A DNA stretch of 32,000 bases, from NCBI RefSeq assembly GCF_000009045.1, contig NC_000964.3:4110001-4142000 (forward strand), read 5' to 3'. Shown here piece by piece: positions 3,222 through 24,915 of the stretch; the stretch's first letter is position 1; every line of letters starts with the position of its first letter. The stretch comes from Bacillus subtilis subsp. subtilis str. 168. GTDB taxonomy: Bacteria; Bacillota; Bacilli; Bacillales; Bacillaceae. The notes beneath the pieces were generated by a model. That model saw nothing but the letters and a program-made list of their open reading frames with translations, was not told the DNA's origin and ran no database searches. Made by a program: the position numbers and the translations under genes.

Positions 3222-3336
3222 CCAAATCGCCTCTTTCAAAACATGATTCACTTAACCTATTGATCTCCAATGTACCATAATTGATCTGGAAATACATACC
3301 ATGCAATATGGTAAAAATTTAAATAAAAATTAGAAA

Positions 3337-3350
3337 TGAAAGTGTTTGCA
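3337..3350 (+). promoter_or_regulatory. Candidate upstream cre (CcpA site) overlapping the gnt -35
   Basis: TGAAAGTGTTTGCA compared with the cre consensus TGWAANCGNTNWCA (two mismatches). My recollection is that the gnt operon has a promoter-proximal cre. Confidence 0.45.
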
Positions 3351-3374
3351 TAAAAGAAATATTCACGTTATCAT
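3346..3374 (+). promoter_or_regulatory. SigA-type gnt operon promoter
   Basis: TTGCAT (3346-3351), 17-nt spacer, TATCAT (3369-3374), about 45 nt upstream of the gntR ATG. Confidence 0.6.
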
Positions 3375-3390
3375 ACTTGTATACAAGTAT
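3373..3390. promoter_or_regulatory. GntR operator (perfect 18-bp palindrome)
   Basis: ATACTTGTATACAAGTAT is perfectly palindromic and overlaps the -10/+1 region. It matches the GntR-family operator core. Confidence 0.85.
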
Positions 3391-3416
3391 ACTCCTTGAG
3401 TGAGGAAGGTGAGTGT

Positions 3417-4148
3417 ATGCTAGACTCCAAAGACCTGTTGTATCCCGCAAAATGGCTCTCAAAAGCGTCAACCGGAGTTCGTGTCGCATACGAGCTGAGA
3501 ATGCGGATCGTTTCAGGTCTGATTGAAAGCGGTACCATTTTATCAGAAAATACAATCGCCGCCGAGTTTTCAGTAAGCCGTTCGCCGGTTCGCGAAGCGC
3601 TAAAAATACTCGCATCCGAAAAAATCATCCGCTTAGAACGAATGGGAGCGGTCGTAATTGGTTTAACTGAGAAGAAAATCGCGGAAATTTATGATGTGCG
3701 GTTACTATTAGAAACATTTGTCTTTGAACGGCTTGTCAAAATAGACATTGAGCCTTTAGTTAAGGATCTCAGCAAAATTCTTGAAATGATGAAAGTCTCA
3801 ATCAAATATGAGGATGCTGACGAATTTTCATTTCAAGATGTGCTGTTCCATGAAACGATTATCCGAGCGATTGATCATTCATACATTCAGATGATCTGGA
3901 ACAATCTAAAACCCGTCATGGAAAGCTTTATTCTTTTATCGATGCGGGTACGGTTAAAGGAAAAGTATGAAGACTTCACAAGGATTTTAGATAACCACGA
4001 GCTTTATATTCAAGCCATCAAAACAAAGGATAGGGCGCTGATGATTCAGTCTCTTCACCAAAACTTTGATGATGTGCAGGATAAGGTAGAAGACCTATGG
4101 CTCTCACAACAAATGCTGGCAAAAGGAGCTGAATACAACAATGACTAG
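3417..4148 (+). CDS. gntR: Gluconate operon repressor GntR (founding member of the GntR family)
   Basis: 243 aa from MLDSKDLLYPAKW. GGAAGGTGAG RBS. Winged-helix segment ENTIAAEFSVSRSPVREALKIL. The stop overlaps the gntK start (ATGACTAG). Confidence 0.95.
   Translation: MLDSKDLLYPAKWLSKASTGVRVAYELRMRIVSGLIESGTILSENTIAAEFSVSRSPVREALKILASEKIIRLERMGAVVIGLTEKKIAEIYDVRLLLETFVFERLVKIDIEPLVKDLSKILEMMKVSIKYEDADEFSFQDVLFHETIIRAIDHSYIQMIWNNLKPVMESFILLSMRVRLKEKYEDFTRILDNHELYIQAIKTKDRALMIQSLHQNFDDVQDKVEDLWLSQQMLAKGAEYNND
3524..3537 (+). promoter_or_regulatory. cre (CcpA/HPr-Ser-P site) inside the gntR coding sequence
   Basis: TGAAAGCGGTACCA is a close match to the cre consensus. I recognise it as the downstream gnt cre. 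Confidence 0.8.
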
Positions 4149-5682
4149 TTATATGTTAGGAATCGATATCGGCACGACAAGCACAAAAGCTGTGCTGTTC
4201 AGTGAAAACGGAGATGTGGTACAGAAAGAAAGCATCGGCTACCCGCTCTATACACCGGACATCTCAACAGCTGAACAAAATCCGGAAGAGATTTTTCAGG
4301 CAGTCATCCATACAACAGCGAGAATTACAAAACAGCATCCCGAAAAACGGATCTCTTTCATTTCGTTCAGCAGCGCCATGCACAGCGTCATTGCAATCGA
4401 CGAAAATGACAAGCCGCTGACGCCATGCATTACATGGGCCGACAACAGAAGTGAAGGCTGGGCGCATAAGATCAAAGAGGAATTGAACGGACATGAGGTG
4501 TACAAACGGACGGGAACACCGATTCATCCGATGGCACCGTTAAGTAAAATTGCCTGGATCACGAATGAAAGAAAAGAAATCGCTTCCAAGGCAAAAAAAT
4601 ATATCGGCATCAAAGAATACATTTTTAAACAGCTGTTCAATGAGTATGTCATCGATTACTCATTGGCATCAGCGACAGGCATGATGAACCTGAAGGGCTT
4701 GGATTGGGACGAAGAGGCACTGCGCATCGCAGGCATCACGCCGGATCACTTATCCAAACTCGTGCCGACAACCGAGATCTTTCAGCACTGCAGCCCGGAA
4801 ATAGCGATCCAAATGGGAATCGATCCGGAAACGCCTTTTGTCATCGGCGCCAGCGACGGCGTGCTGTCCAACCTCGGCGTCAACGCCATTAAAAAGGGTG
4901 AAATCGCCGTCACCATCGGTACAAGCGGTGCCATTCGGACGATTATTGACAAGCCGCAAACCGATGAAAAAGGGAGAATTTTTTGCTATGCCTTGACGGA
5001 CAAGCATTGGGTTATTGGGGGACCTGTGAACAATGGGGGCATCGTCCTTCGCTGGATCAGAGACGAGTTTGCCTCCTCCGAAATCGAAACAGCGACACGG
5101 CTGGGCATTGATCCATATGACGTGCTGACGAAAATTGCCCAACGCGTCAGACCCGGTTCTGACGGTCTGCTGTTCCACCCATATCTCGCCGGAGAACGCG
5201 CTCCGTTGTGGAATCCGGATGTACGCGGCTCATTTTTCGGCTTGACCATGTCGCATAAGAAAGAGCATATGATACGCGCGGCATTGGAAGGCGTCATTTA
5301 CAACCTGTACACGGTGTTCTTGGCGTTAACTGAATGCATGGATGGCCCGGTAACCCGCATCCAAGCGACAGGGGGTTTTGCAAGGTCGGAGGTTTGGCGC
5401 CAAATGATGTCGGATATCTTCGAATCAGAGGTTGTCGTTCCGGAAAGCTACGAAAGCTCATGTCTCGGCGCCTGCATTTTAGGCCTGTATGCAACAGGAA
5501 AAATCGATTCTTTCGACGCCGTGTCCGATATGATCGGCAGCACATACAGACATACGCCGATCGAAGACTCAGCCAAGGAATACAGAACATTAATGCCGAT
5601 TTTCATCAATCTATCAAGATTATTAGAAAATCAATATACACAAATTGCAGATTATCAGAGGGGCTTAATCACACACAAATAG
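4141..5682 (+). CDS. gntK: Gluconate kinase (FGGY carbohydrate kinase family)
   Basis: 513 aa. GIDIGTTSTKAVLF N-terminal FGGY motif. Sits in the gnt operon. Confidence 0.95.
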   Translation: MTSYMLGIDIGTTSTKAVLFSENGDVVQKESIGYPLYTPDISTAEQNPEEIFQAVIHTTARITKQHPEKRISFISFSSAMHSVIAIDENDKPLTPCITWADNRSEGWAHKIKEELNGHEVYKRTGTPIHPMAPLSKIAWITNERKEIASKAKKYIGIKEYIFKQLFNEYVIDYSLASATGMMNLKGLDWDEEALRIAGITPDHLSKLVPTTEIFQHCSPEIAIQMGIDPETPFVIGASDGVLSNLGVNAIKKGEIAVTIGTSGAIRTIIDKPQTDEKGRIFCYALTDKHWVIGGPVNNGGIVLRWIRDEFASSEIETATRLGIDPYDVLTKIAQRVRPGSDGLLFHPYLAGERAPLWNPDVRGSFFGLTMSHKKEHMIRAALEGVIYNLYTVFLALTECMDGPVTRIQATGGFARSEVWRQMMSDIFESEVVVPESYESSCLGACILGLYATGKIDSFDAVSDMIGSTYRHTPIEDSAKEYRTLMPIFINLSRLLENQYTQIADYQRGLITHK

Positions 5683-5710
5683 TACATGACATGAAGGGGA
5701 GGGCATTACC

Positions 5711-7057
5711 ATGCCGTTAATCATCGTTGCACTTGGGATCTTAGCATTACTATTTCTGATTATGGGCTTAAAATTAAACACATTTATTTCCCTGCTGGTC
5801 GTATCGTTCGGCGTGGCACTGGCACTCGGGATGCCGTTCGATAAAGTTGTCAGCTCCATCGAAGCAGGAATAGGGGGGACTCTTGGCCACATCGCGCTCA
5901 TCTTCGGACTCGGTGCGATGCTGGGCAAACTGATCGCGGATTCAGGAGGCGCACAGCGCATTGCGATGACGCTCGTCAACAAATTCGGTGAGAAAAATAT
6001 TCAATGGGCCGTTGTCATTGCCTCATTCATTATTGGGATTGCGTTATTTTTTGAAGTAGGACTGGTTCTATTAATTCCGATTGTCTTTGCGATTTCAAGA
6101 GAATTGAAGATTTCTATTTTATTTCTCGGAATCCCGATGGTCGCGGCACTATCCGTCACACACGGTTTCCTGCCGCCGCACCCGGGACCTACGGCGATCG
6201 CCGGTGAGTATGGCGCAAACATTGGAGAAGTGCTGCTGTACGGCTTTATCGTTGCTGTTCCGACAGTGCTCATTGCAGGGCCGTTATTTACAAAGTTCGC
6301 GAAAAAAATCGTTCCTGCATCATTTGCGAAAAACGGCAATATTGCATCACTCGGCACACAAAAAACATTTAACCTTGAAGAAACACCCGGCTTTGGAATC
6401 AGTGTCTTTACTGCAATGCTCCCGATTATCATCATGTCGGTCGCGACCATTATCGACCTGCTTCAAGAAACAATCGGGTTTGCAGATAACGGAGTTTTAG
6501 CTTTTATCAGATTGATTGGAAACGCATCGACTGCTATGATTATTTCGTTATTGGTCGCAGTCTATACAATGGGCATCAAGCGCAACATTCCAGTCAAAAC
6601 CGTGATGGATTCTTGTTCAACTGCCATTTCACAAATCGGCATGATGCTTTTGATCATCGGAGGAGGCGGCGCCTTCAAACAAGTGCTGATCAACGGCGGT
6701 GTCGGCGATTACGTAGCAGACTTATTCAAAGGAACGGCATTATCGCCAATCATTCTGGCATGGCTCATCGCAGCGATCCTGCGCATTTCTCTAGGATCGG
6801 CGACTGTTGCCGCACTAAGCACAACAGGTCTGGTCATTCCGTTATTGGGCCATTCTGATGTTAACCTGGCGTTAGTCGTACTCGCAACAGGAGCCGGAAG
6901 TGTCATCGCTTCACACGTCAATGACGCCGGCTTCTGGATGTTCAAGGAATACTTCGGATTAAGCATGAAAGAAACATTCGCCACATGGACATTGCTGGAA
7001 ACCATTATTTCCGTTGCTGGACTGGGATTCATTTTATTGTTAAGTTTAGTTGTATGA
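5711..7057 (+). CDS. gntP: Gluconate:H+ permease (GntP family)
   Basis: 448-aa polytopic membrane ORF. GGGGAGGG RBS. Lies between gntK and gntZ. Confidence 0.95.
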
Positions 7058-9526: not shown

Positions 9527-11056
9527 TTGGTACTTGATGCAAATATCAAAGCACAATTAAATCAATATATGCAGCTAATTGAGAATGACATTGTTCTCAA
9601 AGTTAGCGCAGGCGAAGATGACACTTCTAAGGACATGCTGGCTCTCGTTGATGAGCTGGCTTCCATGTCATCGAAAATTTCAGTTGAAAAAGCTGAATTA
9701 AACAGAACGCCGAGCTTCAGTGTCAATCGTGTCGGAGAAGACACTGGCGTGACTTTCGCCGGTATCCCTCTGGGCCACGAATTCACATCATTAGTGTTGG
9801 CGTTGCTCCAAGTGAGCGGCAGACCGCCTAAGGTAGACCAAAAAGTCATTGATCAGGTGAAGAAGATCAGTGGTGAATACCACTTCGAATCTTATATCAG
9901 CCTGACATGCCACAACTGTCCTGATGTTGTACAAGCTTTAAACATGATGAGCGTGCTGAACCCGAACATTACGCACACGATGATTGACGGTGCAGCATAC
10001 AAAGCAGAAGTTGAAAGCAAAAACATCATGGCAGTGCCGACCGTTTACCTGAATGGCGAATCCTTCGGAAGCGGCCGTATGACGCTTGAAGAAATTCTTG
10101 CGAAAATGGGCAGCGGCACAGATGCATCTGAGTTTGCTGACAAAGAGCCGTTTGACGTTCTTGTGGTCGGAGGCGGACCTGCTGGTGCAAGTGCAGCGAT
10201 CTACACTGCACGTAAAGGCATCCGAACTGGTGTTGTCGCTGAGCGCTTCGGCGGACAGGTTCTCGACACCATGAGCATCGAAAACTTCATCAGCGTCAAA
10301 GCGACGGAAGGACCGAAGCTAGCGGCAAGTCTTGAAGAGCATGTGAAGGAATATGATATTGATGTCATGAACCTTCAGCGTGCGAAACGCCTTGAGAAGA
10401 AAGATCTGTTCGAACTTGAACTCGAAAACGGCGCTGTCCTGAAAAGTAAAACAGTGATCCTTTCAACAGGTGCACGCTGGCGCAATGTCAACGTCCCCGG
10501 TGAACAAGAGTTCAAAAACAAAGGTGTCGCATACTGCCCGCACTGTGATGGGCCATTGTTTGAAGGCAAAGACGTTGCGGTAATCGGCGGCGGAAACTCT
10601 GGTATCGAAGCAGCGATTGATCTTGCAGGTATTGTCAATCACGTTACTGTACTAGAATTCGCGCCGGAACTGAAAGCAGACGAAGTCCTGCAAAAACGTC
10701 TCTACAGCCTGCCTAACGTTACTGTCGTGAAAAACGCACAAACAAAAGAAATCACAGGTGATCAGAGTGTTAACGGCATCACATATGTAGACCGCGAAAC
10801 AGGCGAAGAAAAACACGTTGAACTTCAAGGTGTATTCGTCCAAATCGGTCTCGTGCCAAACACAGAATGGTTAGAAGGAACGGTTGAACGCAACCGCATG
10901 GGCGAAATTATTGTCGACAAACACGGCGCAACAAGCGTACCAGGCTTATTTGCTGCCGGCGACTGCACAGACAGTGCGTACAACCAAATTATTATTTCTA
11001 TGGGATCAGGTGCAACTGCCGCCCTCGGCGCGTTTGATTACCTAATCCGTAACTAA
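9527..11056 (+). CDS. ahpF: Alkyl hydroperoxide reductase, flavoprotein subunit F (NADH dehydrogenase)
   Basis: 509 aa. TTG start 7 nt after AAGGAGTG. CHNCPD and CPHCDG redox dithiols. GGGPAG and GGGNSG FAD/NAD motifs. Confidence 0.95.
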
Positions 11057-13930: not shown

Positions 13931-14089
13931 ATGTACAAAATTATCATTCCTGCCATACTAGCCATCTTTGCGCTCTGGATACTCTTACAGATTTCACTAG
14001 AGATGAGCATCGTTAAGAATCCAATGAACTACTTTATCGTATTCATTATCTTTTTCCTCTTTGTAAAGATGGTGAAAGAAAAACAATAA
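13931..14089 (+). CDS. Small hydrophobic protein, 52 aa, two predicted TM helices (not in the ORF track)
   Basis: My translation: ATG at 13931 preceded by AGGTGG with a 5-nt spacer, giving MYKIIIPAILAIFALWILLQISLEMSIVKNPMNYFIVFIIFFLFVKMVKEKQ, stop at 14087-14089. Confidence 0.5.
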   Translation: MYKIIIPAILAIFALWILLQISLEMSIVKNPMNYFIVFIIFFLFVKMVKEKQ

Positions 14090-14185
14090 TAGTTTGGGCG
14101 ATGCAAACAGAAAAACATCCTTCCCTTAACAAACTCAGCCAGTCACATGCATTAATCTTGATGTTAATGATATATAGGTGCACAT

Positions 14186-14217
14186 AAAAAGCTACTTCAT
14201 TGTGAAGTAGCTCCCTT
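14186..14217. terminator. Terminator of the yydFGHIJ operon (hairpin usable on both strands)
   Basis: AGCTACTTCA-ttg-TGAAGTAGCT is a perfect 10-bp stem. On the minus strand it is followed by TTTTTAT, 3 nt after the yydJ stop. Confidence 0.75.
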
Positions 14218-14219
14218 TA

Positions 14220-14942
14220 TTAAAGGCCCATTTTGATCCATCTAGTTTTAGAAAAGCGAAGGACAATCGCATTTATGATAATAATTGAAACTAAATACAA
14301 AATAATAAATAAAACATCATTACTCCCAAGTGTCATGTTATCAGATTGCAGCACTCTTTCTATTCGGGGGTACATAGTGTTACCTGCCTCAAAAGGAGCA
14401 ATGAAACCAAACGTTTTATTGCTTATAGCTACTAAGATAACAGAAGTCATCCAATAAACGATACTGACACCTATACTAATTAATATATTAGGACATAACA
14501 CGCTTATAGTTCCGATAATTAGAATATACTGCAGTATAACTGCAGAAAATAAAAAAAGTAATAATGCAAAATGCGAAAAATCATGGTACATCAACGATAT
14601 GATTAGCAGGCCTAGCGTTATAAATGCAAAACATTCTAAAAATAAAACAGCTATCTTTTTATAAAAGAAAGTATAGATGTTCTCTCCAATTAACTTGTAA
14701 AAGAGAATATTTTTGTTTGAATACTCTCTATTAATAAAGAAAGCTATAACAAATGAAAATAACATCAAACCAAACTGGGTCGCAACAGTATAGGAGCTAA
14801 AGAAAAACATTTCAGGTGTAACATTACTGACTTTATCGATTCCAACAAGTAAAAAATAACCCAGCAAAAATAAAAATACAAACATTGCTCCTAAAATAAT
14901 GATAACTTTGTTGCTAATACTCTTTTTAAACTCTAATTTCAT
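14220..14942 (-). CDS. yydJ: ABC transporter permease of the YydF peptide exporter
   Basis: 240-aa AT-rich ORF with about 6 hydrophobic helices, immediately downstream of an ABC ATPase gene. Confidence 0.85.
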   Translation of the reverse strand: MKLEFKKSISNKVIIILGAMFVFLFLLGYFLLVGIDKVSNVTPEMFFFSSYTVATQFGLMLFSFVIAFFINREYSNKNILFYKLIGENIYTFFYKKIAVLFLECFAFITLGLLIISLMYHDFSHFALLLFLFSAVILQYILIIGTISVLCPNILISIGVSIVYWMTSVILVAISNKTFGFIAPFEAGNTMYPRIERVLQSDNMTLGSNDVLFIILYLVSIIIINAIVLRFSKTRWIKMGL

Positions 14943-14962
14943 CTCAAGCCCCCACTGTTTTA

Positions 14963-15592
14963 TTACTCATTTATATACACTTCAATTAATTTATCCACTG
15001 AATGATATTGTTGAATTTCTTGGTGATTAAATATATAATAATCCCCTTCTATCGCCTTTAAATCAGACAAATCATGTGTAATGTTGATGATAATCTTCTC
15101 GGGGTTCTCCTGAATATACTTGTTTAAGAAGCCATGAATCTCTATAACCGTTTTTTTGTCTAATGAATTCGTTATTTCATCTAAAACAATAATATTTTTA
15201 TCCTCTAATAAGAAACTGAGCAATTTTAATTTTTGCTTTTGTCCATCACTCAAATTTTTGATCAGAACTTTTCCATCAATATTATCCAGATTAAGTAAAT
15301 ATGCGATTTTATCTATCATTTTTGCATCAAATTTTTTACTCAAAAAGTGTAATAAAAAGTCCTTAGAAACATCATTAGGTATATTCGACGAGCTGGATAT
15401 TAAAGAAACATTTTGACGAATATCTCTGCCGATTCTTTTGCTATTATTCAACAAAAAGTCTTTAGCAAGCTGTGATTTACCGACTCCATTTTTTCCGACA
15501 ACGTGATTAATTTTCCCGCTCGAAAAATGCAAGTCGGTGTCCTGAAGTAACGTTTTGCCTTTCACTTTTAAAGTGTAATTCGCTATATTCAT
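14963..15592 (-). CDS. yydI: ABC transporter ATP-binding protein
   Basis: Walker A GKNGVGKS, signature LSDGQKQK, Walker B IIVLDE. Start placed at MNIANYTLKV (TAGGAG RBS 7 nt upstream), giving 209 aa. The ORF-track start is 15619. Confidence 0.85.
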   Translation of the reverse strand: MNIANYTLKVKGKTLLQDTDLHFSSGKINHVVGKNGVGKSQLAKDFLLNNSKRIGRDIRQNVSLISSSSNIPNDVSKDFLLHFLSKKFDAKMIDKIAYLLNLDNIDGKVLIKNLSDGQKQKLKLLSFLLEDKNIIVLDEITNSLDKKTVIEIHGFLNKYIQENPEKIIINITHDLSDLKAIEGDYYIFNHQEIQQYHSVDKLIEVYINE

Positions 15593-15741
15593 ATACATAC
15601 TCCTAGGAAATATTTGCATAATAATAAAATGTTCTGCCTTGTGATTTGTTACTAATGTCTAAGCTTTTGAGGTACCTCTTTCGTTTCCGATCCGGAAGCG
15701 AAAGAAATGTTTTTAGATGGCTAATTTGGAGATCTTTTACT

Positions 15742-16500
15742 CTAGTTTACAATATATAATATCCAATGTACAACTGAATTCACTGCAAGGCCAATCCCTA
15801 TAATTTGAATCGTAAGAACTAACCAATGATTTGTCTTAAAACGGCTATATTCATCTAAGCTCAGAAAAGCTAAAAGAATTTTGTAACCATCAGAATTCAA
15901 TATTGGGATTAAGTTCCACAATAAAGTAGACGAGAAAAGCATAAATGCCATAGTTAATGCTTCACTGGAAAATGTAAATTGATTTATTAATTCTAATGTA
16001 TTTATTAAAAGATAATTGATAAACAAGCCAAATAAATGAACGATTATCTTTTCATTTCTTGATAGCATGTAGGTTTCATTCAATTGGACATAAAAAGCAG
16101 GAAATACATAAAAATTCAGTTTGAATCCCACTTTATCAAAGTTTTTCCCGAAAAATTTTAAGGAATAAATATGTCCCAGTTCATGAAGCACTATATTCAT
16201 TATAAAATAAATAACTATAATTATCCACATTTTCCAGCCGTAAAATACTGAGGACAATCCATTTTGCAATTTTATTAAATGAATATAATTTAATATGAAC
16301 ATGAGAGCCGTAAAGGATAAGAACAGATAAAAAAACTTTGGTGATACTTTCTCTTTATACATTTTAAAACGTAATAATTGTTTATCTGACAGAGAATTTA
16401 AACTATTTTTATAGTATTCTCCGCTTTTTTTGTCTTTTATAAATACGTTGTTTTGCACAAGCACTTCATATTTTTCATCTTCATACTTTAAAATTTTCAT
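15742..16500 (-). CDS. yydH: Integral-membrane zinc metalloprotease (M50/site-2-protease-like), predicted YydF processing protease
   Basis: 252 aa, polytopic, with an HELGH zinc motif inside a hydrophobic segment. Overlaps the yydG 3' end by 20 nt. Confidence 0.85.
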   Translation of the reverse strand: MKILKYEDEKYEVLVQNNVFIKDKKSGEYYKNSLNSLSDKQLLRFKMYKEKVSPKFFYLFLSFTALMFILNYIHLIKLQNGLSSVFYGWKMWIIIVIYFIMNIVLHELGHIYSLKFFGKNFDKVGFKLNFYVFPAFYVQLNETYMLSRNEKIIVHLFGLFINYLLINTLELINQFTFSSEALTMAFMLFSSTLLWNLIPILNSDGYKILLAFLSLDEYSRFKTNHWLVLTIQIIGIGLAVNSVVHWILYIVN

Positions 16501-17440
16501 TATAGTATTTTTCCATATAAGGATAGAAGTAGTTTATTTTTTCTGCAGAGTTGAATAAGGAACCACAAACTCCACAAATAGAGGAAAATTCATAAGGAAT
16601 GTCAAATTCCTCTATTTTGTTATTTTCTTTTAAAATATTCAAAAACCATTTGAATCCTTCTTTTCTAAGAATAAATAATAGCAAATTGGAATTTAACTTT
16701 TCCACGGTTCTTTCGAAACTTTGGTTATATTCTTCCCTTAGGGTTATTTTCGTTTCAAAAATAGCAGGGGAACAACATGGATAAATTTCTCCATCATGAT
16801 GATATACAATGTCATATCCGGGACAATGTAAGGAATCTTCATCTTCAAGACTGTAAAATTTATGTATGTTTTCTTGCTTAATTCTAGTTTTAGCAGCGCC
16901 AACTGATATCATTGGAAATTTTGTTATCTTTACACCTAAGATTGAATCCCCCAATTCCTCTAAAATGTGGTTGGACATTTTGTCTTTGGTAACTGCCATA
17001 TTAAGAGAAATATCGATATCAGGGTATTTCCTGCTATGTTCTAATATGTTTTTAATACTGGAAGACTTGACAAATGGAGCATGGTACTCATCATAACTTA
17101 TAGTCAGTGCTATCACATTTAAAGAATTCATATCATGAAAGTACTCCTGGACCTTTTTCTTGCTCAAACCCCAAAATCCATTAGAGATCAACGTTATTTG
17201 TTTTTCATATGGTTTAATGATTTCCATTAGTTCTTTTAAAAATTTATAATCTAAAAAAACTTCCCCACCTGTAAAAGAAATCACTTGAATGGTTTTGTTT
17301 TTTGCAAATTCAGTTACTAACTCTCTTATGTATTCTTTTTCCATCCTGGTTGTTGAAGTTGGTGAACTAGAAAAACAACAATGGTCACAGGATGCATTAC
17401 ACCTTGAATCTAAATTGATTGATACTGTTTTATTATACAT
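16481..17440 (-). CDS. yydG: Radical SAM peptide epimerase
   Basis: 319 aa. CNASCDHCC (CxxxCxxC radical SAM cluster) near the N-terminus. Additional C-terminal Cys clusters (HCPGYD...YPCC, ICGVCG) are consistent with an auxiliary Fe-S (SPASM-like) domain. Confidence 0.9.
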   Translation of the reverse strand: MYNKTVSINLDSRCNASCDHCCFSSSPTSTTRMEKEYIRELVTEFAKNKTIQVISFTGGEVFLDYKFLKELMEIIKPYEKQITLISNGFWGLSKKKVQEYFHDMNSLNVIALTISYDEYHAPFVKSSSIKNILEHSRKYPDIDISLNMAVTKDKMSNHILEELGDSILGVKITKFPMISVGAAKTRIKQENIHKFYSLEDEDSLHCPGYDIVYHHDGEIYPCCSPAIFETKITLREEYNQSFERTVEKLNSNLLLFILRKEGFKWFLNILKENNKIEEFDIPYEFSSICGVCGSLFNSAEKINYFYPYMEKYYNENFKV

Positions 17441-17462
17441 GAAATATCCCCCAACAAATGGT

Positions 17463-17485
17463 AAAGGAGAGTTAGACTCTCCTTT
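17463..17485 (-). terminator. Intra-operon hairpin between yydF and yydG (probable leaky terminator or attenuator)
   Basis: AAAGGAGAG-ttaga-CTCTCCTTT is a perfect 9-bp stem, 13 nt after the yydF stop and 22 nt before the yydG ATG. The U-tract is weak. Confidence 0.55.
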
Positions 17486-17497
17486 GTACCCCTCTAA

Positions 17498-17647
17498 TTA
17501 ATGACCACTTCCAAGAATCCAGCGATTTTCTTTTGATTTTACAAAATACCAAAGATCATTCACTTTTGCTAACTTTTGTGATTCATCTAATAGACCCTTA
17601 AATTCTAAGTTTTTCACAGTCTCATTGTTAGTGATTTCCTTTTTCAT
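17498..17647 (-). CDS. yydF: RiPP precursor peptide YydF, 49 aa (not in the ORF track)
   Basis: My translation of the minus strand: MKKEITNNETVKNLEFKGLLDESQKLAKVNDLWYFVKSKENRWILGSGH. AGGAGGAGGG RBS. Directly upstream of the radical SAM gene. Confidence 0.9.
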   Translation of the reverse strand: MKKEITNNETVKNLEFKGLLDESQKLAKVNDLWYFVKSKENRWILGSGH

Positions 17648-17678
17648 ATTATCCCTCCTCCTTTTCTAATATAAACCA

Positions 17679-17707: not shown

Positions 17708-18118
17708 TATATTGTACCTAAAAAATCTGAAAAATGTCACTATTCTTGGTATATAAAGCCTATAGTCCTCTAGCCCCTCTAAGCTATACCGAATGAAAGG
17801 CCATAGTTTGATTTAAAGCTTCGTAATGAAAAGTAAAACATCAATATTGACTACACTAGTTAAGGGATATACAGATTTTAAGTGGAAGAAATGAGGCAAA
17901 CAATCTTACCCTAAACCAACCTGTACTGAAAAGCTGTTTTAAGCTCTTGCTTACCCCATTTGGCACCTCTTTCTCTCGTTTTAATTGTCTCTAAAAGCAG
18001 TTATGCGGTACTATCATATAAAGGTCCAATGTTTAAAAATAATGTCATACTTTTAAATTCACCTTATCATGCACATGCTCATAAAGAGGGGTTTATTCTA
18101 AAAAGGGGATGGACGGTT

Positions 18119-20044
18119 TTGGAAAGCAAGTACCTAGATCTACTCGCACAAAAATACGATTGTGAAGAAAAAGTGGTAACAGAAATCATCAATTTGAAAG
18201 CGATATTGAACCTGCCAAAAGGCACCGAGCATTTTGTCAGTGATCTGCACGGAGAGTATCAGGCATTCCAGCACGTGTTGCGCAATGGTTCAGGACGAGT
18301 CAAAGAGAAGATACGCGACATCTTCAGCGGTGTCATTTACGATAGAGAAATTGATGAATTAGCAGCATTGGTCTATTATCCGGAAGACAAACTGAAATTA
18401 ATCAAACATGACTTTGATGCGAAAGAAGCGTTAAACGAGTGGTATAAAGAAACGATTCATCGAATGATTAAGCTCGTTTCATATTGCTCCTCTAAGTATA
18501 CCCGCTCCAAATTACGCAAAGCACTGCCTGCCCAATTTGCTTATATTACGGAGGAGCTGTTATACAAAACAGAACAAGCTGGCAACAAGGAGCAATATTA
18601 CTCCGAAATCATTGATCAGATCATTGAACTTGGCCAAGCCGATAAGCTGATCACCGGCCTTGCTTACAGCGTTCAGCGATTGGTGGTCGACCATCTGCAT
18701 GTGGTCGGCGATATTTATGACCGCGGCCCGCAGCCGGATAGAATTATGGAAGAACTGATCAACTATCATTCTGTCGATATTCAGTGGGGAAATCACGATG
18801 TCCTTTGGATCGGCGCCTATTCCGGTTCCAAAGTGTGCCTGGCCAATATTATCCGCATCTGTGCCCGCTACGACAACCTGGATATTATTGAGGACGTGTA
18901 CGGCATCAACCTGAGACCGCTGCTGAACCTGGCCGAAAAATATTATGATGATAATCCAGCGTTCCGTCCAAAAGCAGACGAAAACAGGCCAGAGGATGAG
19001 ATTAAGCAAATCACAAAAATCCATCAAGCGATTGCCATGATCCAATTCAAGCTTGAGAGCCCGATTATCAAGAGACGGCCGAACTTTAATATGGAAGAGC
19101 GGCTGTTATTAGAGAAAATAGACTATGACAAAAATGAAATCACGCTGAACGGAAAAACATATCAACTGGAAAACACCTGCTTTGCGACGATTAATCCGGA
19201 GCAGCCAGATCAGCTATTAGAAGAAGAAGCAGAAGTCATAGACAAGCTGCTATTCTCTGTCCAGCATTCCGAAAAGCTGGGCCGCCATATGAATTTTATG
19301 ATGAAAAAAGGCAGCCTTTATTTAAAATATAACGGCAACCTGTTGATTCACGGCTGTATTCCAGTTGATGAAAACGGCAATATGGAAACGATGATGATTG
19401 AGGATAAACCGTATGCGGGCCGTGAGCTGCTCGATGTATTTGAACGATTCTTGCGGGAAGCCTTTGCCCACCCGGAAGAAACCGATGACCTGGCGACAGA
19501 TATGGCTTGGTATTTATGGACAGGCGAATACTCCTCCCTCTTCGGAAAACGCGCCATGACGACATTTGAGCGCTATTTCATCAAAGAGAAGGAAACGCAT
19601 AAAGAGAAGAAAAACCCGTATTATTATTTACGAGAAGACGAGGCAACCTGCCGAAACATCCTGGCAGAATTCGGCCTCAATCCAGATCACGGCCATATCA
19701 TCAACGGCCATACACCTGTAAAAGAAATCGAAGGAGAAGACCCAATCAAAGCAAACGGAAAAATGATCGTCATCGACGGCGGCTTCTCCAAAGCCTACCA
19801 ATCCACAACAGGCATCGCCGGCTACACGCTGCTATACAACTCCTACGGCATGCAGCTCGTCGCCCATAAACACTTCAATTCCAAGGCAGAAGTCCTAAGC
19901 ACCGGAACCGACGTCTTAACGGTCAAACGATTAGTGGACAAAGAGCTTGAGCGGAAGAAAGTGAAGGAAACGAATGTGGGTGAGGAATTGTTGCAGGAAG
20001 TTGCGATTTTAGAGAGTTTGCGGGAGTATCGGTATATGAAGTGA
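18119..20044 (+). CDS. fbp: Fructose-1,6-bisphosphatase class 3
   Basis: Class 3 FBPase with metallophosphatase-type motifs ([21 protein letters not shown]). I favour the TTG at 18119 (AAAGGGGAT RBS; [13 protein letters not shown]; 641 aa). The in-frame ATG at 18029 would give 671 aa. The ORF-track start at 17960 is unlikely. Confidence 0.9.
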
Positions 20045-20530
20045 GGGGTGTGGGGTTCAGGGATGGTGATATGCTGCTCCCCTAAAAGTAGATAGATGAA
20101 TTTTAGAAAATCTGTTTGCCTTGGGGAGTTTTTTCATGGCTGGACAATTATACTACAAGGAAGAAATACTAATACTTATAGAATGTAATTGGGTAATGAT
20201 TCGGAGAAAGAGGTTGCGAAATAATATGGTATTACACTGAAACAATTATCAATGGAGAACATGCACGATATAGCCGTTCTATATTCTCCCTCTATTATGG
20301 CACTCATTAGTAGACATAACCGTAAAAAAATGCACTCAAAAAAAGTCCATTCTATATAACTCTCGCTAGGGTGGACCTTTTTCAACATTCAAAGTACTAG
20401 ATTTTTTCTAGTGAAAGAATAAGAAAAGACATAAGTTCTATTTTATCACTCTGTTATAGGTTAAGTTATTACGGTGTTTCATTATATACTGAATTTAAAC
20501 ACCCTTGACATTATGGGAATTTTTAAAACA

Positions 20531-20560
20531 GGTTAAAAGGAAGTTCTATAAGAACTCCCT
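20531..20560 (-). terminator. Candidate terminator after yydD
   Basis: Imperfect hairpin GGAGTTCT-tat-AGAACTTCC (one bulge) on the minus strand, followed by TTTTAACCTGTTTT. Confidence 0.45.
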
Positions 20561-20577
20561 AGTTTAATATTATTTGG

Positions 20578-22338
20578 TCAAAATCTAAAACCAAAAAATC
20601 TATTTTTATCTTCATTGTTTCTATCTAATTTTGCAACAATCATACCTTTCGACTCTAATTCTTGAAGGTCATCTAATAATAATTCATTTTTATTTATTGT
20701 TACAAAATATTGTCCGATCCTATTCTCTAACAGACTTGAATTGATATGTTTTAATAATGTACCTTTTACATGAGGATCAGGATTAGAATAAGATCCGTCA
20801 TGAATTAAAATATTCAAACTACACTTATTTATACACCTGTATAAAAACCAAGTAAGATCAAATATATTTATCTTCATATGGAGTCTACCATGTGAACGTT
20901 CATCCGGTATAGAACAAGAAATTTTGATCCTTCCTGTAGTTGATTGTTTTGCGTTACTTATTCTATTATCATATTCAAAATCTAAAAATCCATGTTGGTT
21001 GTATGTAACATCCATTAGATTATTAAAAAGCTTCTTTAACTCACTAACTATAGCGCTATAAGATTGAAACTCATCATAATACATTGAATTAACTCTTAAT
21101 ATTTCATGTTGAAGTTCATTAATCTTATCAAAAATATGGTTTTTTTTATCGTAGTCACTAATTCTCAATCTTACTTCCGCTAACTCTATTTCTTTCCTTC
21201 TTTGTTCTTCCATCACAATGGAAATATCCTCAATGAAATTGTTACTCTTTAAAATTCTGGCACTTGATTCCAGTTGTTCTGTTAATCCTTGCTTTTTGAT
21301 ATTAAGTTTTTTTAAATCGGCTTGTATTTTAACAATTTTATCTTTAAAATAACTCCCTCTACTTTCTACCATGAAATTATAGAACTCTTGGACTTTATTA
21401 TAATTCTGTTTTACTTCCTCTGGAAAAAAACCTACAATATCTTCATAGAATTTTTCTATATTTTCTAATTCTTTAATCTTAGTTACTTTTTTATTTAAAT
21501 CATCTATATTTCTTTGATATTGTTTACAAATATGTTCATTTTCAAATATTTCATTTTGTATTTTATTAAGTTCACTTTTAATTTCTGAGTACCTATTTGT
21601 ATCATTATTATATTTATTGGCAGTCTTAGTTTGATAGATAACTCTATTGTAATCCTCTATCTCATTTATTAATTCATCTTCCTTAACTTTTAAATCGCCA
21701 ATGTTAATATTCATTGATTCAATCAATTTTATTTCACTATTTAATTTTTCAATCTTATCCCGAAAAACCTTTATGTTTTTTTCTGTATGAGTTGGTAAAG
21801 TAAAAAGATAGTTAAGTAATTTATATTGTTTTAACCCTCCCCTATTCGGTAAAACTATATCATTAAACCCTGTCTTTTCGTCTCTTATAATATACTCCCT
21901 TAACGCCGCAAAAGTTATATCCTCTTTCTCACCCTTTAAAATTTCCTTTTCAATAAATTTTTTATATACACTTATACTAACTTTTTTCCATTCCTCCAAA
22001 TTAAAAGTTAAAGAAGTATCATGTAATGTATAACCATGTTTAGGAGAATTAAAAGATCTAGCAAGGAATACTTGATTTCCATCAATTTCCACATTCAAAA
22101 CAATAAAAACGTTTTTATTGAGAAGAATTTCATTTGTCGTATAAAAATTTGATATAGTCTTCCCTAGTAAAAAGGAGATGCATTCAATCATCGTTGACTT
22201 ACCTACACCATTAGTCTCTTCATGATCTTCTCTCTTTTCACCAAGTATTATATTTACTCCTACAGCATTAAATTTATACTCTTTCAAAATTTCTTGGGAA
22301 TTGCAAACAAAAAGATTTTTTATAATCATAACAATCAC
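20578..22338 (-). CDS. yydD: Coiled-coil ABC/SMC-like ATPase (candidate LmuB/DdmC-like or Rad50-like sensor)
   Basis: 586 aa. N-terminal Walker A ETNGVGKST (K47). A central region of about 250 aa rich in E/K/I/L/N heptads, predicted coiled coil. C-terminal Walker-B-like LNILIHDGS. The GTG start overlaps the yydC TAG stop by 1 nt; an ATG lies 3 codons downstream at 22327-22329. Confidence 0.8.
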   Translation of the reverse strand: MIVMIIKNLFVCNSQEILKEYKFNAVGVNIILGEKREDHEETNGVGKSTMIECISFLLGKTISNFYTTNEILLNKNVFIVLNVEIDGNQVFLARSFNSPKHGYTLHDTSLTFNLEEWKKVSISVYKKFIEKEILKGEKEDITFAALREYIIRDEKTGFNDIVLPNRGGLKQYKLLNYLFTLPTHTEKNIKVFRDKIEKLNSEIKLIESMNINIGDLKVKEDELINEIEDYNRVIYQTKTANKYNNDTNRYSEIKSELNKIQNEIFENEHICKQYQRNIDDLNKKVTKIKELENIEKFYEDIVGFFPEEVKQNYNKVQEFYNFMVESRGSYFKDKIVKIQADLKKLNIKKQGLTEQLESSARILKSNNFIEDISIVMEEQRRKEIELAEVRLRISDYDKKNHIFDKINELQHEILRVNSMYYDEFQSYSAIVSELKKLFNNLMDVTYNQHGFLDFEYDNRISNAKQSTTGRIKISCSIPDERSHGRLHMKINIFDLTWFLYRCINKCSLNILIHDGSYSNPDPHVKGTLLKHINSSLLENRIGQYFVTINKNELLLDDLQELESKGMIVAKLDRNNEDKNRFFGFRF

Positions 22339-22736
22339 TAACTCTCCGTTCTGCTAATCATATTTTGATTAAAAGAAACTTTACCTAATGAATATAAAAA
22401 AGTTAACGATAAATACAGTATCCGTTCAATATTCAAATTTATTATAATACCTTGACTCTTAGCATAATCAAGAAAAAGTTGATCAATATGTTTTTCCTTC
22501 TCTAACAGTTCATAAAGTATCTTTGATGAGTATAAAATATTTTCTTCCACAGCATTATATTTAGTTAATAAAAAATGATTCATTTCTGGCCTCTCCGCCT
22601 TTTCCTTTTTTAAAGGAGAATTATTCACTAGAGGAATAAGATCATTTCCAATTTGAATGTTTTTAAACTCATTTTCTAATAAAACATAAGAGTATTTGAG
22701 AATATTTTCAGCTGTTTCAATTTTAAGATCAATCAT
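22338..22736 (-). CDS. yydC: Small helical protein of unknown function (candidate middle/adaptor component)
   Basis: 132 aa from MIDLKIETAEN. This ATG sits in ATGATTGA and overlaps the yydB stop. The longer 146-aa version (start 22778) would overlap yydB by 50 nt. No recognisable catalytic motif. Confidence 0.65.
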   Translation of the reverse strand: MIDLKIETAENILKYSYVLLENEFKNIQIGNDLIPLVNNSPLKKEKAERPEMNHFLLTKYNAVEENILYSSKILYELLEKEKHIDQLFLDYAKSQGIIINLNIERILYLSLTFLYSLGKVSFNQNMISRTES

Positions 22737-24174
22737 TCTTAACACTTCTTTTGTTATCATTAAAAATCTCACATTCATAAATGCACCAACATGTTAAAAT
22801 CTTAATGTATTTTTTCGTTAAAGCCTTTGAATATGGTAAAACTGAATGACATTCTAGATAAATCTCATTAACAATTTTTACAAATATCTCATCTCCATTA
22901 TTATATTGATTATGAAACTCTAGATATTTGTCTACTATCGTCTCAGCAATCAATTCCTTTTTATCAGCACTTACATACGAAGTGGAATCCATTATATGGT
23001 TTATCACACCAAAATACTCAGAATAACTATCGAATTTCCGTTTAAAAGTTTCCCCACTTTTCATATCATAAAATTTTTTATCTAAACCAATTTGATTATC
23101 AAAATTACTAGTAAATGTTTTATAACTTTCTCTATACTCATGAAAATCTATAATAAAGCTCTTAAACTCATCTTCATCAATTTTATCATCGTTATCTTCT
23201 ATTTCTTTTTCAATAAGGCTCTCTAATCTATTAATCTTATAATTTAACTTCCCTTCCTGTAGTCTCCTTCCTCCTTGGTTGTTTTTTGACCAGTATTTAT
23301 ATTCGGTATTCCAAATGTAGTATGTTACTTCTGTCTCGCCATTATCTAAATTCACATCCACCGAAATAAATTCTGGAGTAGCATACTCATCCTTTATAAT
23401 GGCTCCACTTACTAATTCTAAGAATGGATTTTCATTTGTATTTGCAGTAATATTAAATGAAGAATCATGTACATGTCCTGCCAAATATAGATCAATAAAG
23501 TAATCATCAAAATGTGCCTTTATTGATTCTCTTTCGGAAGATTCAATACAACCTAACGTATGGTGCCCAATAGCTATATTTAATACCTTGCCCTTATTTT
23601 TCTCTTTGTTCATCTTCCTTATTGCTTTATATAATTTCATCTGTGCAGTTAATAACGTTCCTTCTTCACCTTTTTTATCTGATAACAGACATGTATTTAT
23701 TGATAAAACATTATACTTCTCCGATTGATACAAAAAATGCAAATCTTCTTCCGGATATTTAACACCCATAAAATCTTCATAAAAATCGAAAAATTTCCTT
23801 TGACCTTCCACTAATATATTTGTAGCTTTTTGATCTAGTTTATCCAACATTTCTGAGGGGTTAGGAGATTTCATAATACTATCAATCAAAAGTGTCCTCG
23901 TCATGTCTCTAGATATATCGTGATTTCCTGGCACTAAGTGTACGTTATTCTTACTTAATCCCATACTTTTAATAATTCCATTAAGATATTCTTTAACATC
24001 TTCGTTATACACATCACCTTTGTGTGCTATATCTCCAGTTAATAATAAAAAATCAAAATCTGACTCTCTTCTTAAAACTTCTATAAAATCTAATAATTTA
24101 TCTCTCATTACAATAGTGTCATAATTTTGAAACTGAAAATGCAAATCAGAAATTTGTAAAAAACGTACCTTCAA
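22729..24174 (-). CDS. yydB: Calcineurin-like metallophosphoesterase with an uncharacterised helical C-terminal domain (candidate effector)
   Basis: All five metallophosphoesterase motifs are present: ISDLHF, TGDIAHKGD, PGNHD, IGHH, AGHVHD. About 190 aa of C-terminal extension has no motif I recognise. A TTG start at 24174 is favoured by GAGAGG spacing (481 aa); the ATG at 24183 gives 484 aa. Confidence 0.8.
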   Translation of the reverse strand: MKVRFLQISDLHFQFQNYDTIVMRDKLLDFIEVLRRESDFDFLLLTGDIAHKGDVYNEDVKEYLNGIIKSMGLSKNNVHLVPGNHDISRDMTRTLLIDSIMKSPNPSEMLDKLDQKATNILVEGQRKFFDFYEDFMGVKYPEEDLHFLYQSEKYNVLSINTCLLSDKKGEEGTLLTAQMKLYKAIRKMNKEKNKGKVLNIAIGHHTLGCIESSERESIKAHFDDYFIDLYLAGHVHDSSFNITANTNENPFLELVSGAIIKDEYATPEFISVDVNLDNGETEVTYYIWNTEYKYWSKNNQGGRRLQEGKLNYKINRLESLIEKEIEDNDDKIDEDEFKSFIIDFHEYRESYKTFTSNFDNQIGLDKKFYDMKSGETFKRKFDSYSEYFGVINHIMDSTSYVSADKKELIAETIVDKYLEFHNQYNNGDEIFVKIVNEIYLECHSVLPYSKALTKKYIKILTCWCIYECEIFNDNKRSVKND

Positions 24175-24435
24175 TACAAACATCCTCTCATAAGTATATT
24201 TATCCCCTATATATTTCTAGAAAACTTTTTATTCTATATCATCTTTACTCTTTAATATATTAAGACTCTTTCCACACCATCAAATAAATTATAACCTAAA
24301 CATAACTCTTTACTCATTTTAGTATTGTATTTAAGTCAAACATTGCATTGGTTGCTGAAATATTATATTCATTGAATTATTCCATTAAATAGCTTTTAGT
24401 TGAACTTTAGTCTTTCTGTAATGGTGGAGATGCTC

Positions 24436-24915
24436 TTACTTATGATAAGGCTCCCCACGATTAATCCGAAAAGCCCGATAAATCTGCTCCACTAAAATAA
24501 GCCGCATCAACTGATGAGGAAATGTCATCTTCGAGAACGATAGCTTCTCGTCCGCTCGCTTCATCACCGTGTCACTCAATCCGAGTGATCCGCCGATGAC
24601 GAAGGTGACTTTGCTTTTTCCATAAGTAGCCAGCTTATCTATTGTATCGGCTAGTTCTTCGGATGTTTTCATTTTTCCTTCGATGGCGAGGGCGATGACG
24701 TGGGCGTCGGGGCTGATTTTGGATAGGATGCGGTCGCCTTCTTTGTCTTTTATGATTTTCATGTCCTGGTCGCTTAGGTTTTCCGGCGCTTTTTCGTCCG
24801 GGAGTTCGATGATGTCGATTTTTGCGTAGGCCGAAAGTCGTTTGGTGTATTCTTCAATGCCTTGCTTGAGGTATTTTTCTTTTAGTTTTCCGATTGTCAC
24901 AATATTGATATTCAC
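24436..24915 (-). CDS. rlmH: 23S rRNA (pseudouridine1915-N3)-methyltransferase RlmH (SPOUT family)
   Basis: 159 aa. [24 protein letters not shown]-terminus and C-terminal GGS.GL...[17 protein letters not shown] are typical of RlmH/YbeA. GC content returns to the normal level here. Confidence 0.9.

Follow-up and report, generated by a model that had tools for sequence, protein, structure and literature searches.

The yydBCD operon of Bacillus subtilis 168, a predicted Lamassu-type conflict system with a metallophosphoesterase effector

Genes and domains of the yydBCD operon

We analysed a 32,000-nt stretch of the Bacillus subtilis subsp. subtilis str. 168 chromosome (NC_000964.3, forward-strand positions 4,110,001 to 4,142,000; hereafter the window, to which all coordinates refer), focusing on yydB, yydC and yydD, three tightly packed minus-strand open reading frames (ORFs) that sit between fbp and rlmH and together form a candidate conflict system. 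The longest yydB ORF (22729..24183, 484 aa) encodes the effector protein, the yydC ORF (22338..22778, 146 aa) a middle component, and yydD (20578..22338) a DUF2326 ABC ATPase that is Rad50/SMC-like and resembles LmuB of Lamassu systems. An earlier interpretation made from the letters alone (hereafter the sequence-only reading) had placed three co-directional minus-strand genes in an AT-rich island, and the ORF list and base composition of the window confirmed this placement, with a GC content of 0.26–0.30 over 20500–24500 and of 0.43–0.53 in the flanks. ORFs of 484 and 586 codons are far above chance in DNA of 27% GC.

The start of yydB is probably TTG 24174, which yields a 481-aa product: the Shine-Dalgarno (SD) sequence GAGAGG lies 9 nt ahead of it, and the database protein P0086, 100% identical to YydB, is 481 aa long. 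For yydD, GTG 22338 was dropped as a start in favour of ATG 22329 (583 aa, the probable start), which encodes M4, a residue invariant in 39 homologues whose N-termini begin there. Given this invariance, the yydC–yydD junction is most likely an 8-nt gap and not an overlap, the 1-nt overlap (the G) visible in GGAGAGTTAGTG being that of the yydC TAG with the rejected GTG. At the other junction, as read directly from the sequence, the yydB stop overlaps a yydC ATG by 8 nt within AAGAATGATTGA, and ATGATTGA comprises the letters common to the two. Of the two overlapping junctions described by the sequence-only reading, the first therefore stands and the second probably does not. Overlaps of 4 nt or 1 nt are typical of both junctions in homologous loci, indicating that tight coupling is a trait of the whole yydBCD family.

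Candidate starts for yydC are ATG 22736 (132 aa) and ATG 22583 (81 aa). Most YydC homologues are about 80 aa long and begin at the equivalent of M66, encoded by ATG 22583, 6 nt ahead of which a conserved SD sequence, GGAGAGG, lies inside yydC (22581–22600, minus strand). Upstream of M66, 50 codons remain free of stops in B. subtilis, B. atrophaeus and B. pumilus; an in-frame indel occurs among them, and changes at codon position 2 of this extension (1/51 and 9/50) compare with 8–18 changes at positions 1 and 3. The open extension, the in-frame indel and the position-2 conservation make a 132-aa YydC plausible, and both starts may be used, giving products of 132 and 81 aa.

YydD has the expected halves of a coiled-coil ABC ATPase. 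Its Walker A motif, ETNGVGKS (22195..22218, minus strand), contains N43, V45, G46 and K47, all invariant in 39 homologues, and the same holds for G484, H513, D514, G515 and S516 in the stretch (20791..20895, minus strand) that spans the ABC signature-like S482-H-G-R and the Walker B motif LNILIHDGS with D514. In the AlphaFold (AF2) model (pLDDT 86), a Rad50-like head is split by an antiparallel coiled coil of about 260 residues (185–446) with a helix turn at 302–307, and the Walker B strand lies at 510–514; as in ABC three-component (ABC-3C) ATPases, the coiled-coil insert separates the Walker A half from the signature/Walker B half. The Walker A, long coiled coil and Walker B-like LNILIHDGS that had been read from the sequence are thus all present, with key residues invariant. 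The proposed similarity to SMC-like and ABC-3C ATPases was likewise recovered in family and structure searches. YydD matched DUF2326 (2.8e-28) and AAA_23 (1.4e-5) in Pfam, and PDC-M68B (4.7e-46) and two LmuB models (5.9e-12 and 1.1e-9) in PADLOC. Among experimental structures, Foldseek returned five LmuB chains first, from Salmonella and type II Lamassu complexes (9hqu_A at 1.9e-13, then 9uxh_F, 9hqx, 9ux7 and 9nyg; range 1.9e-13 to 4.5e-11; identity to YydD 11–14%), followed by Rad50, SMC and JetC.

The Walker B motif of YydD reads hhhHDG, that of distant DUF2326 relatives hhhHDS, and the clade pattern is hhhHD[G/S]. Spacing to a downstream P-D fits a D-loop, which indicates that the catalytic Glu is absent and that Gly stands in its place. 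Short Lamassu systems have a Walker B of the form hhhhD[Q/S/T/E], likewise without the catalytic Glu (10.1101/2025.04.02.646746). A CxxC zinc hook was found neither in YydD nor in 7 relatives. Conservation within the coiled coil was highest at the apex (aa 261–340; 21319..21558, minus strand), where 19 of 80 alignment columns were at least 90% conserved, compared with 4/76 and 5/106 in the two arms. In the solved LmuA1B2C1 complexes, LmuA's C-terminal domain (CTD) and LmuC are located on the head-distal coiled coils (10.1101/2025.04.02.646746), and the apex conservation of YydD thus fits a Lamassu core. By analogy with these complexes, YydC and the YydB CTD are predicted to dock at the apex.

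YydC, in which the sequence-only reading had seen no recognisable motif, does have a family assignment: residues 72–139 match Pfam MC6 ("ABC-3C middle component 6"), narrowly exceeding its gathering threshold (28.6 bits, cut-off 27.2), and its homologues score 27.4–82.1 bits. Sequence and profile searches of the PDB with YydC returned no informative relatives.

YydB combines a metallophosphoesterase (MPE) module (aa 5–331; 23191..24171, minus strand), the predicted toxic effector domain, with a six-helix CTD (aa 335–484; 22732..23181, minus strand) that is CTD11-like and predicted to act in docking. The protein matches Pfam Metallophos at 1.8e-18, and the complete phosphoesterase motif set recognised earlier in its sequence (D13/H15, G50-D51, G86-N87-H88-D89, H207/H208 and G236-H237-x-H239) is kept in 27 of 28 homologues. 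In the AF2 model (pLDDT 81), residues 1–313 form the alpha/beta phosphoesterase core and its beta-rich cap, and residues 334–467 a six-helix bundle. The C-terminal region is therefore helical, as had been suggested, and about 150 aa long (334–481) instead of the suggested 190 aa; its conserved residues are F343, K370, M374, C376, F391, Y420, G430, W466 and C471. The best PADLOC model for YydB was PDLC00736, "Effector/Endonuclease" (1.1e-65).

The MPE module is homologous to the anti-phage phosphoesterase domains of DS-8 (NF053861, 1.7e-30) and DS-9 (NF053862, 1.1e-17), two DefensePredictor systems whose metallophosphatase catalytic residues are required for phage defence (PMC13092281). Given that YydB scores far under the NCBIfam equivalog cut-offs (105.6 vs. 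790 bits for DS-8, 64 vs. 420 bits for DS-9), this homology is at the domain level only and does not make YydB a member of either family. The next-nearest MPE relatives are N-terminal modules fused to SAVED plus S24 peptidase, NACHT, nSTAND4/6, GAAD and receiver (REC) domains. Fusion to several sensors indicates that the MPE is an output module reused by immune sensors, and it may have been recruited independently by four unrelated kinds, namely a Lamassu-like ATPase, SAVED (CBASS-type), NACHT/STAND and GAAD. By fold, YydB matched acid sphingomyelinase (3.6e-7), purple acid phosphatase (4e-7) and Mre11 (~1e-5), and sequence and profile searches of the PDB gave only weak matches to the N-terminus of MRE11 (phmmer, 2.2e-3).

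Conservation, effector exchange and mobility

A genome scan with a YydD profile gave 43 loci, of which 27 with a complete YydD homologue were tabulated, the rest being truncated pieces or contig ends. The B-C-D order, with genes abutting or overlapping, was kept in 27/27 tabulated loci. The triad is thus co-conserved, and the order of effector, small protein and coiled-coil ABC ATPase, which the sequence-only reading had likened to Lamassu and ABC-3C systems, was borne out. Hosts were Bacilli, Clostridia (including gut Lachnospiraceae) and one Melioribacteraceae metagenome-assembled genome. The enzyme at the effector position varies on a constant CTD: in Bacillus sp. FJAT-49711, SIR2_2 (7e-26) stands in place of the MPE on the same CTD and is followed by MC6 and DUF2326, and SIR2_2 with a YydB-type CTD was recorded in loci L008, L049 and L054. 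When 1.84 billion representative proteins were searched with the YydB CTD, only 30 clusters were found; 28 were scanned, and 19 of these carried Metallophos, 3 SIR2_2 and 1 CTD11 (4.3e-10).

More distant DUF2326+MC6 triads, 21–24% identical to YydD, were found on plasmids, and most of their proteins are named "ABC-three component system" by NCBI. The effector carries SMEK_N on Vibrio plasmids (one also with CTD10), HNH_2+CTD10 on a Blastomonas plasmid, and a domain without family assignment on CTD10 on a Streptomyces plasmid, where PDC-M68A was matched and PDC-M68B reached 2.3e-148. SMEK and HNH are listed among the short-Lamassu effectors (10.1101/2025.04.02.646746). Exchange of effector domains, which had been suggested as a check, was therefore observed both within Bacillus (SIR2) and among distant relatives (SMEK, HNH). 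These PDC-M68 triads share with yydBCD the ATPase family, MC6, the three-gene order and the hhhHD[G/S] Walker B, but differ in that a SMEK_N, HNH_2 or unassigned domain on CTD10, matching PDC-M68A, takes the place of an MPE on a CTD11-like domain; YydB had no PDC-M68A match at E up to 1.

The operon is horizontally acquired and is mobile as a cassette of just the three genes. Its B. atrophaeus and B. pumilus copies share 89% and 81% identity with the window, respectively, and occupy another chromosomal site, with homology ending within 10–20 nt of the operon ends (24193..20567). Close homologues lie on 2 Bacillaceae plasmids, one of Priestia megaterium and one of Bacillus cereus, the latter being a SIR2 version that adjoins a methyltransferase and a helicase. 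The triad was also present at the edge of two IMG/VR prophage-like contigs (L053, 1–5324; L054, 1–3299, the SIR2 version); the first adjoins a large serine recombinase, and lysogeny-type helix-turn-helix regulators lie beside the other. No YydD relative was found in INPHARED phage genomes. The 131 flanking ORFs of the 27 loci included many integrases, IS66/IS21 transposases and Mu or Tn7 genes, and few defence genes (type II restriction-modification, DruE-like, DRT, ShosA and PDC-S05). Among the distant triads, Gabija (GajA 2.5e-222, GajB 4.7e-175) abuts that of Vibrio alginolyticus, and Hachiman (HamB E=0) that of Blastomonas.

Several homologous loci showed signs of rearrangement or decay. 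On the B. atrophaeus and B. pumilus contigs (L050–L052), the cassette adjoins a full-length 687-aa Thioredox_DsbH gene, followed by a 61–75-aa DsbH fragment (features at about 3300–5770 and 9810–10070), and this fragment may be a trace of the way in which the cassette entered. Decay was seen in L018, L023, L027, L030, L033–L041 and L049: yydD homologues are frameshifted or split in some of these copies, and others are 3′ fragments adjoining integrase or transposase genes. In the B. cereus plasmid copy, the SIR2 effector and its CTD have become separated, and a group II intron reverse transcriptase lies nearby. A 543-bp Cellulomonas carbonis contig (L029) encodes a peptide 100% identical to YydD residues 467–586 and most likely represents B. 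subtilis contamination of the C. carbonis assembly.

The distribution and the effector exchange bear on the relationship to SbcCD/Mre11-Rad50, which the sequence-only reading had invoked because a phosphoesterase is paired with an SMC-like ATPase. In a housekeeping or accessory DNA-repair role of this type, YydD would clamp DNA ends and the YydB nuclease would process hairpins or breaks. In keeping with such a role, a binuclear MPE is encoded upstream of a coiled-coil ATPase of the Rad50 fold, Rad50 and Mre11 are among the fold matches of the two proteins, the N-terminus of YydB weakly matches MRE11 by phmmer, and Lamassu itself has been proposed to derive from SbcCD. We nevertheless consider it very improbable. 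YydB reached 15.8 bits against TIGR00619 sbcd, for which the cut-off is 77.65, and Staphylococcus aureus SbcD ranked only 50th in its fold search; its MPE can be exchanged for SIR2, which consumes NAD and has no repair role. Unlike the SbcCD ATPase, YydD has neither a zinc hook nor a Walker B Glu, and its coiled coil is much shorter, and, unlike SbcCD, the system comprises three genes with an MC6 middle component as adaptor and is mobile, patchily distributed and located in an AT-rich, Rok-silenced island. Moreover, B. subtilis already encodes a canonical SbcCD. An SbcCD ancestry of the YydB phosphoesterase is not supported by the sbcD score, the fold rank, the SIR2 swap and the missing zinc hook. 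The resemblance is real at the fold level and is best read as a secondary, convergent re-pairing and not as retained ancestry, given that the phosphoesterase is not SbcD-like and is exchangeable for SIR2, and that neither a zinc hook nor a Walker B Glu is present in the ATPase. A more striking but less likely reading is that the operon has kept an SbcCD-like combination of nuclease and ATPase, as an intermediate on the way from DNA repair to Lamassu.

The same mobility data are relevant to the possibility that the complex serves mainly in competition between mobile elements, in plasmid exclusion in the manner of DdmABC or in island addiction, and not in defence against phages. This would agree with the plasmid-borne copies and those next to integrase, transposase and conjugation genes, with the movement of the operon as a bare cassette, and with the elimination of plasmids by DdmABC, itself a Lamassu system (PMC10586767). 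However, such a function is indistinguishable in silico from anti-phage defence, both phages and plasmids are targets of validated Lamassu systems, and two copies of the triad lie in prophage lysogeny regions, a typical place of anti-phage cargo. We therefore regard a mainly non-phage role as unlikely.

A predicted Lamassu-superfamily conflict system

Published data show that the operon is expressed in strain 168. YydB, YydC and YydD were all detected by whole-cell proteomics, with intensity-based (iBAQ) values of 1.8e7, 4.4e6 and 1.7e7, respectively, and YydD and YydB formed heteromeric crosslinks and co-eluted (0.896 and 0.86; PMC10090944). The locus is also an exemplar of regions bound and repressed by Rok (PMC8894471). 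Repression by Rok, together with the frameshifted or fragmentary state of homologous loci (L018, L027, L030 and L033–L041), would be expected of an inert remnant, that is, a xenogeneically silenced and decaying acquisition without current function in strain 168. We find this hard to credit, given that the three ORFs are intact, that every catalytic and nucleotide-binding motif is present, that the proteins are detected in cells and interact, and that codon-position conservation between species indicates purifying selection.

We consider it probable that yydBCD is instead a self-contained, horizontally acquired and short conflict system of the Lamassu superfamily (ABC-3C), in its DUF2326/MC6 branch, with a predicted immune function. 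The architecture, domains, synteny, effector swapping, expression, YydB–YydD contact and Rok repression on which this reading draws come from the present analysis or from the literature. As in type II (short) Lamassu/DdmABC, an effector and a small protein precede a Rad50-like ABC ATPase of about 600 aa, and the effector consists of a variable N-terminal enzyme on a helical CTD of 5–6 helices. The Walker B motif lacks the catalytic Glu, and some Lamassu members also lack the zinc hook. LmuB is the best experimental fold match of YydD, PADLOC LmuB HMMs match YydD, and SIR2, HNH and SMEK effectors occur both in short Lamassu and in relatives of yydBCD. In contrast to short Lamassu systems, the effector enzyme of yydBCD is an MPE and its Walker B motif is hhhHDG. 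With respect to DdmABC, the families of the smaller parts also differ: YydC is MC6 and the YydB CTD is CTD11-like, whereas DdmB is MC3 and DdmA has CTD7.

For the stoichiometry, docking site, DNA sensing, activation step and substrate, we reasoned by analogy with the solved LmuA1B2C1 complexes, in which sensing of DNA ends is followed by the release and tetramerisation of LmuA. YydD would form a Rad50-like dimer whose ATP-binding heads detect abnormal phage or plasmid DNA, for instance free ends or intermediates of replication. At rest, one YydB would be kept inactive, docked through its CTD and YydC on the apex of the YydD coiled coil. Engagement of DNA and ATP would then free YydB or permit its oligomerisation, after which its binuclear MPE could destroy an essential phosphoester substrate, and infection would be aborted or the plasmid-bearing cell eliminated. 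By this analogy, DNA is the most likely single substrate, with a chance that we place slightly short of even, and a nucleotide or cofactor pool is the alternative. A stronger form of this alternative, in which the YydB-type MPE represents a distinct immune "executioner" chemistry that hydrolyses a nucleotide, cofactor or other phosphoester pool and is not another DNase, seems doubtful to us, but would make B. subtilis 168 a native and tractable host for studying both the MPE substrate and SMC-like gating.

The MPE might also act without killing, degrading a nucleotide signal or a phage-made molecule in the manner of SMPDL3A, as has been proposed for DS-8, so that the cell is protected alive. 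The best fold match of YydB, acid sphingomyelinase, belongs to the SMPDL3A family, and the homologous DS-8/DS-9 domain has been proposed to cleave cyclic nucleotides (PMC13092281). DS-8 (MPE-NACHT), DS-9 (MPE plus HAD) and the CBASS-type MPE-SAVED proteins share with YydB a homologous MPE module of about 325 aa, but have a NACHT, SAVED or HAD partner where yydBCD has an SMC-like ATPase and a middle component. Protection of this kind is quite improbable, in our view, given that the module occupies the output position of SAVED/NACHT/STAND sensors and of ABC-3C systems, where its counterparts (SIR2, HNH, SMEK, Cap4) are toxic, that the closest PADLOC model is filed as an endonuclease effector, and that the operon includes no nucleotide cyclase.

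Several observations weigh against the assignment of yydBCD to the Lamassu superfamily or against parts of the proposed mechanism. The TM score of YydD with LmuB in Foldseek was 0.44 and the sequence similarity was weak, and sequence and profile searches of the PDB with YydD returned only coiled-coil noise and no relatives. The Gly in its Walker B motif falls outside the published short-Lamassu set Q/S/T/E, and its ATPase behaviour may therefore differ. The CTD of YydB matched Pfam CTD11 below threshold (E 0.044, 14.8 bits vs. a cut-off of 27.7); sub-threshold matches were also obtained for 9/28 homologues, in addition to the single member of the CTD family that matched at 4.3e-10. An hhalign comparison of the YydB-family CTD with CTD10 of the distant triads gave E 0.014 at a probability of 3%, and a C-terminal "E-CDI" motif was the only feature common to the two. 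The fold search with the YydB model cannot tell a nuclease from other phosphoesterases. The integrative YydD–YydB model (PDB 9a6c) is based on one crosslink, and its confidence is low, at 0.27–0.37 (PMC11383924); such low confidence would be expected of a binary model if YydC and a second YydD are absent from it. An enrichment near defence genes, which had been raised as a check, held in part: Gabija and Hachiman adjoin distant triads, but among the 131 flanking ORFs the enrichment was moderate at most, with surroundings that vary and are mobile. No phage or plasmid phenotype for yydBCD or any DUF2326/MC6 triad was found in the literature searched, nor was any functional study of yydB, yydC or yydD, in agreement with what the sequence-only reading had stated. 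Finally, MPE does not appear in the effector lists of 10.1101/2025.04.02.646746 and PMC10586767, the two lists compared (the ABC-3C list of Krishnan et al. 2020 lies outside this comparison).

Part of the Lamassu-superfamily assignment is already predicted, the chassis being represented in Pfam (MC6, CTD11, DUF2326), in NCBI product names and in PADLOC PDC-M68. Relative to the two effector lists compared, the MPE is new as a Lamassu-type effector; the native expression in strain 168 and the HDG variant of Walker B are the other new elements. Strain 168, which serves as a reference and as a host for defence tests, thus appears to carry a native, expressed and Rok-dampened Lamassu-type system that can confound or explain its phage and plasmid phenotypes, especially in rok mutants. 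It also offers a tractable native model for the DUF2326/MC6 branch, on which no experimental work was found in the literature searched. In addition, the operon connects an MPE effector of the kind that DS-8 and DS-9 require with a fourth type of sensor, and the question of its substrate could be addressed with point mutants (YydB D13/H15 and YydD K47).

Neighbouring features of the window

Upstream of yydB, a promoter scan found candidate hexamers, TTGATG-18-TATATT (24254..24283, minus strand), although promoter-like matches in this AT-rich DNA were not above chance (25 found vs. 28.5 expected from shuffled sequence). On the far side of the operon, the spacer between fbp and yydD (20045–20577, 530 bp) contains only a 70-aa ORF without a family match (20176–20388, minus strand) and a weak terminator-like hairpin 3′ of yydD (GGGAGTTC-TTATA-GAACTTCC-TTTT; 20535..20559, minus strand). 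This hairpin was read from the sequence; the terminator scan called none and skipped it because its T-run is only 4 long.

The fbp ORF (17960–20044, plus strand) matches the firmicute fructose-1,6-bisphosphatase family and, as listed, opens at a TTG 56 codons ahead of the FBPase_2 match, so that the true fbp start is probably downstream. Its product also has a weak Metallophos match (1.9e-4), which looks like a coincidence of neighbourhood. On the other flank, the rlmH/yydA ORF (24436–24915, minus strand) matches the SPOUT methyltransferase RlmH/YydA, and other flanking ORFs of the window match YyzF and the radical-SAM protein YydG. A second AT-rich block on the minus strand (~14000–17650, GC 0.28–0.31) contains the yydF-J cluster, in which the radical-SAM gene occupies 16481–17440; this cluster and yydBCD have been listed together as a GerR-inhibited cluster (PMC517825).

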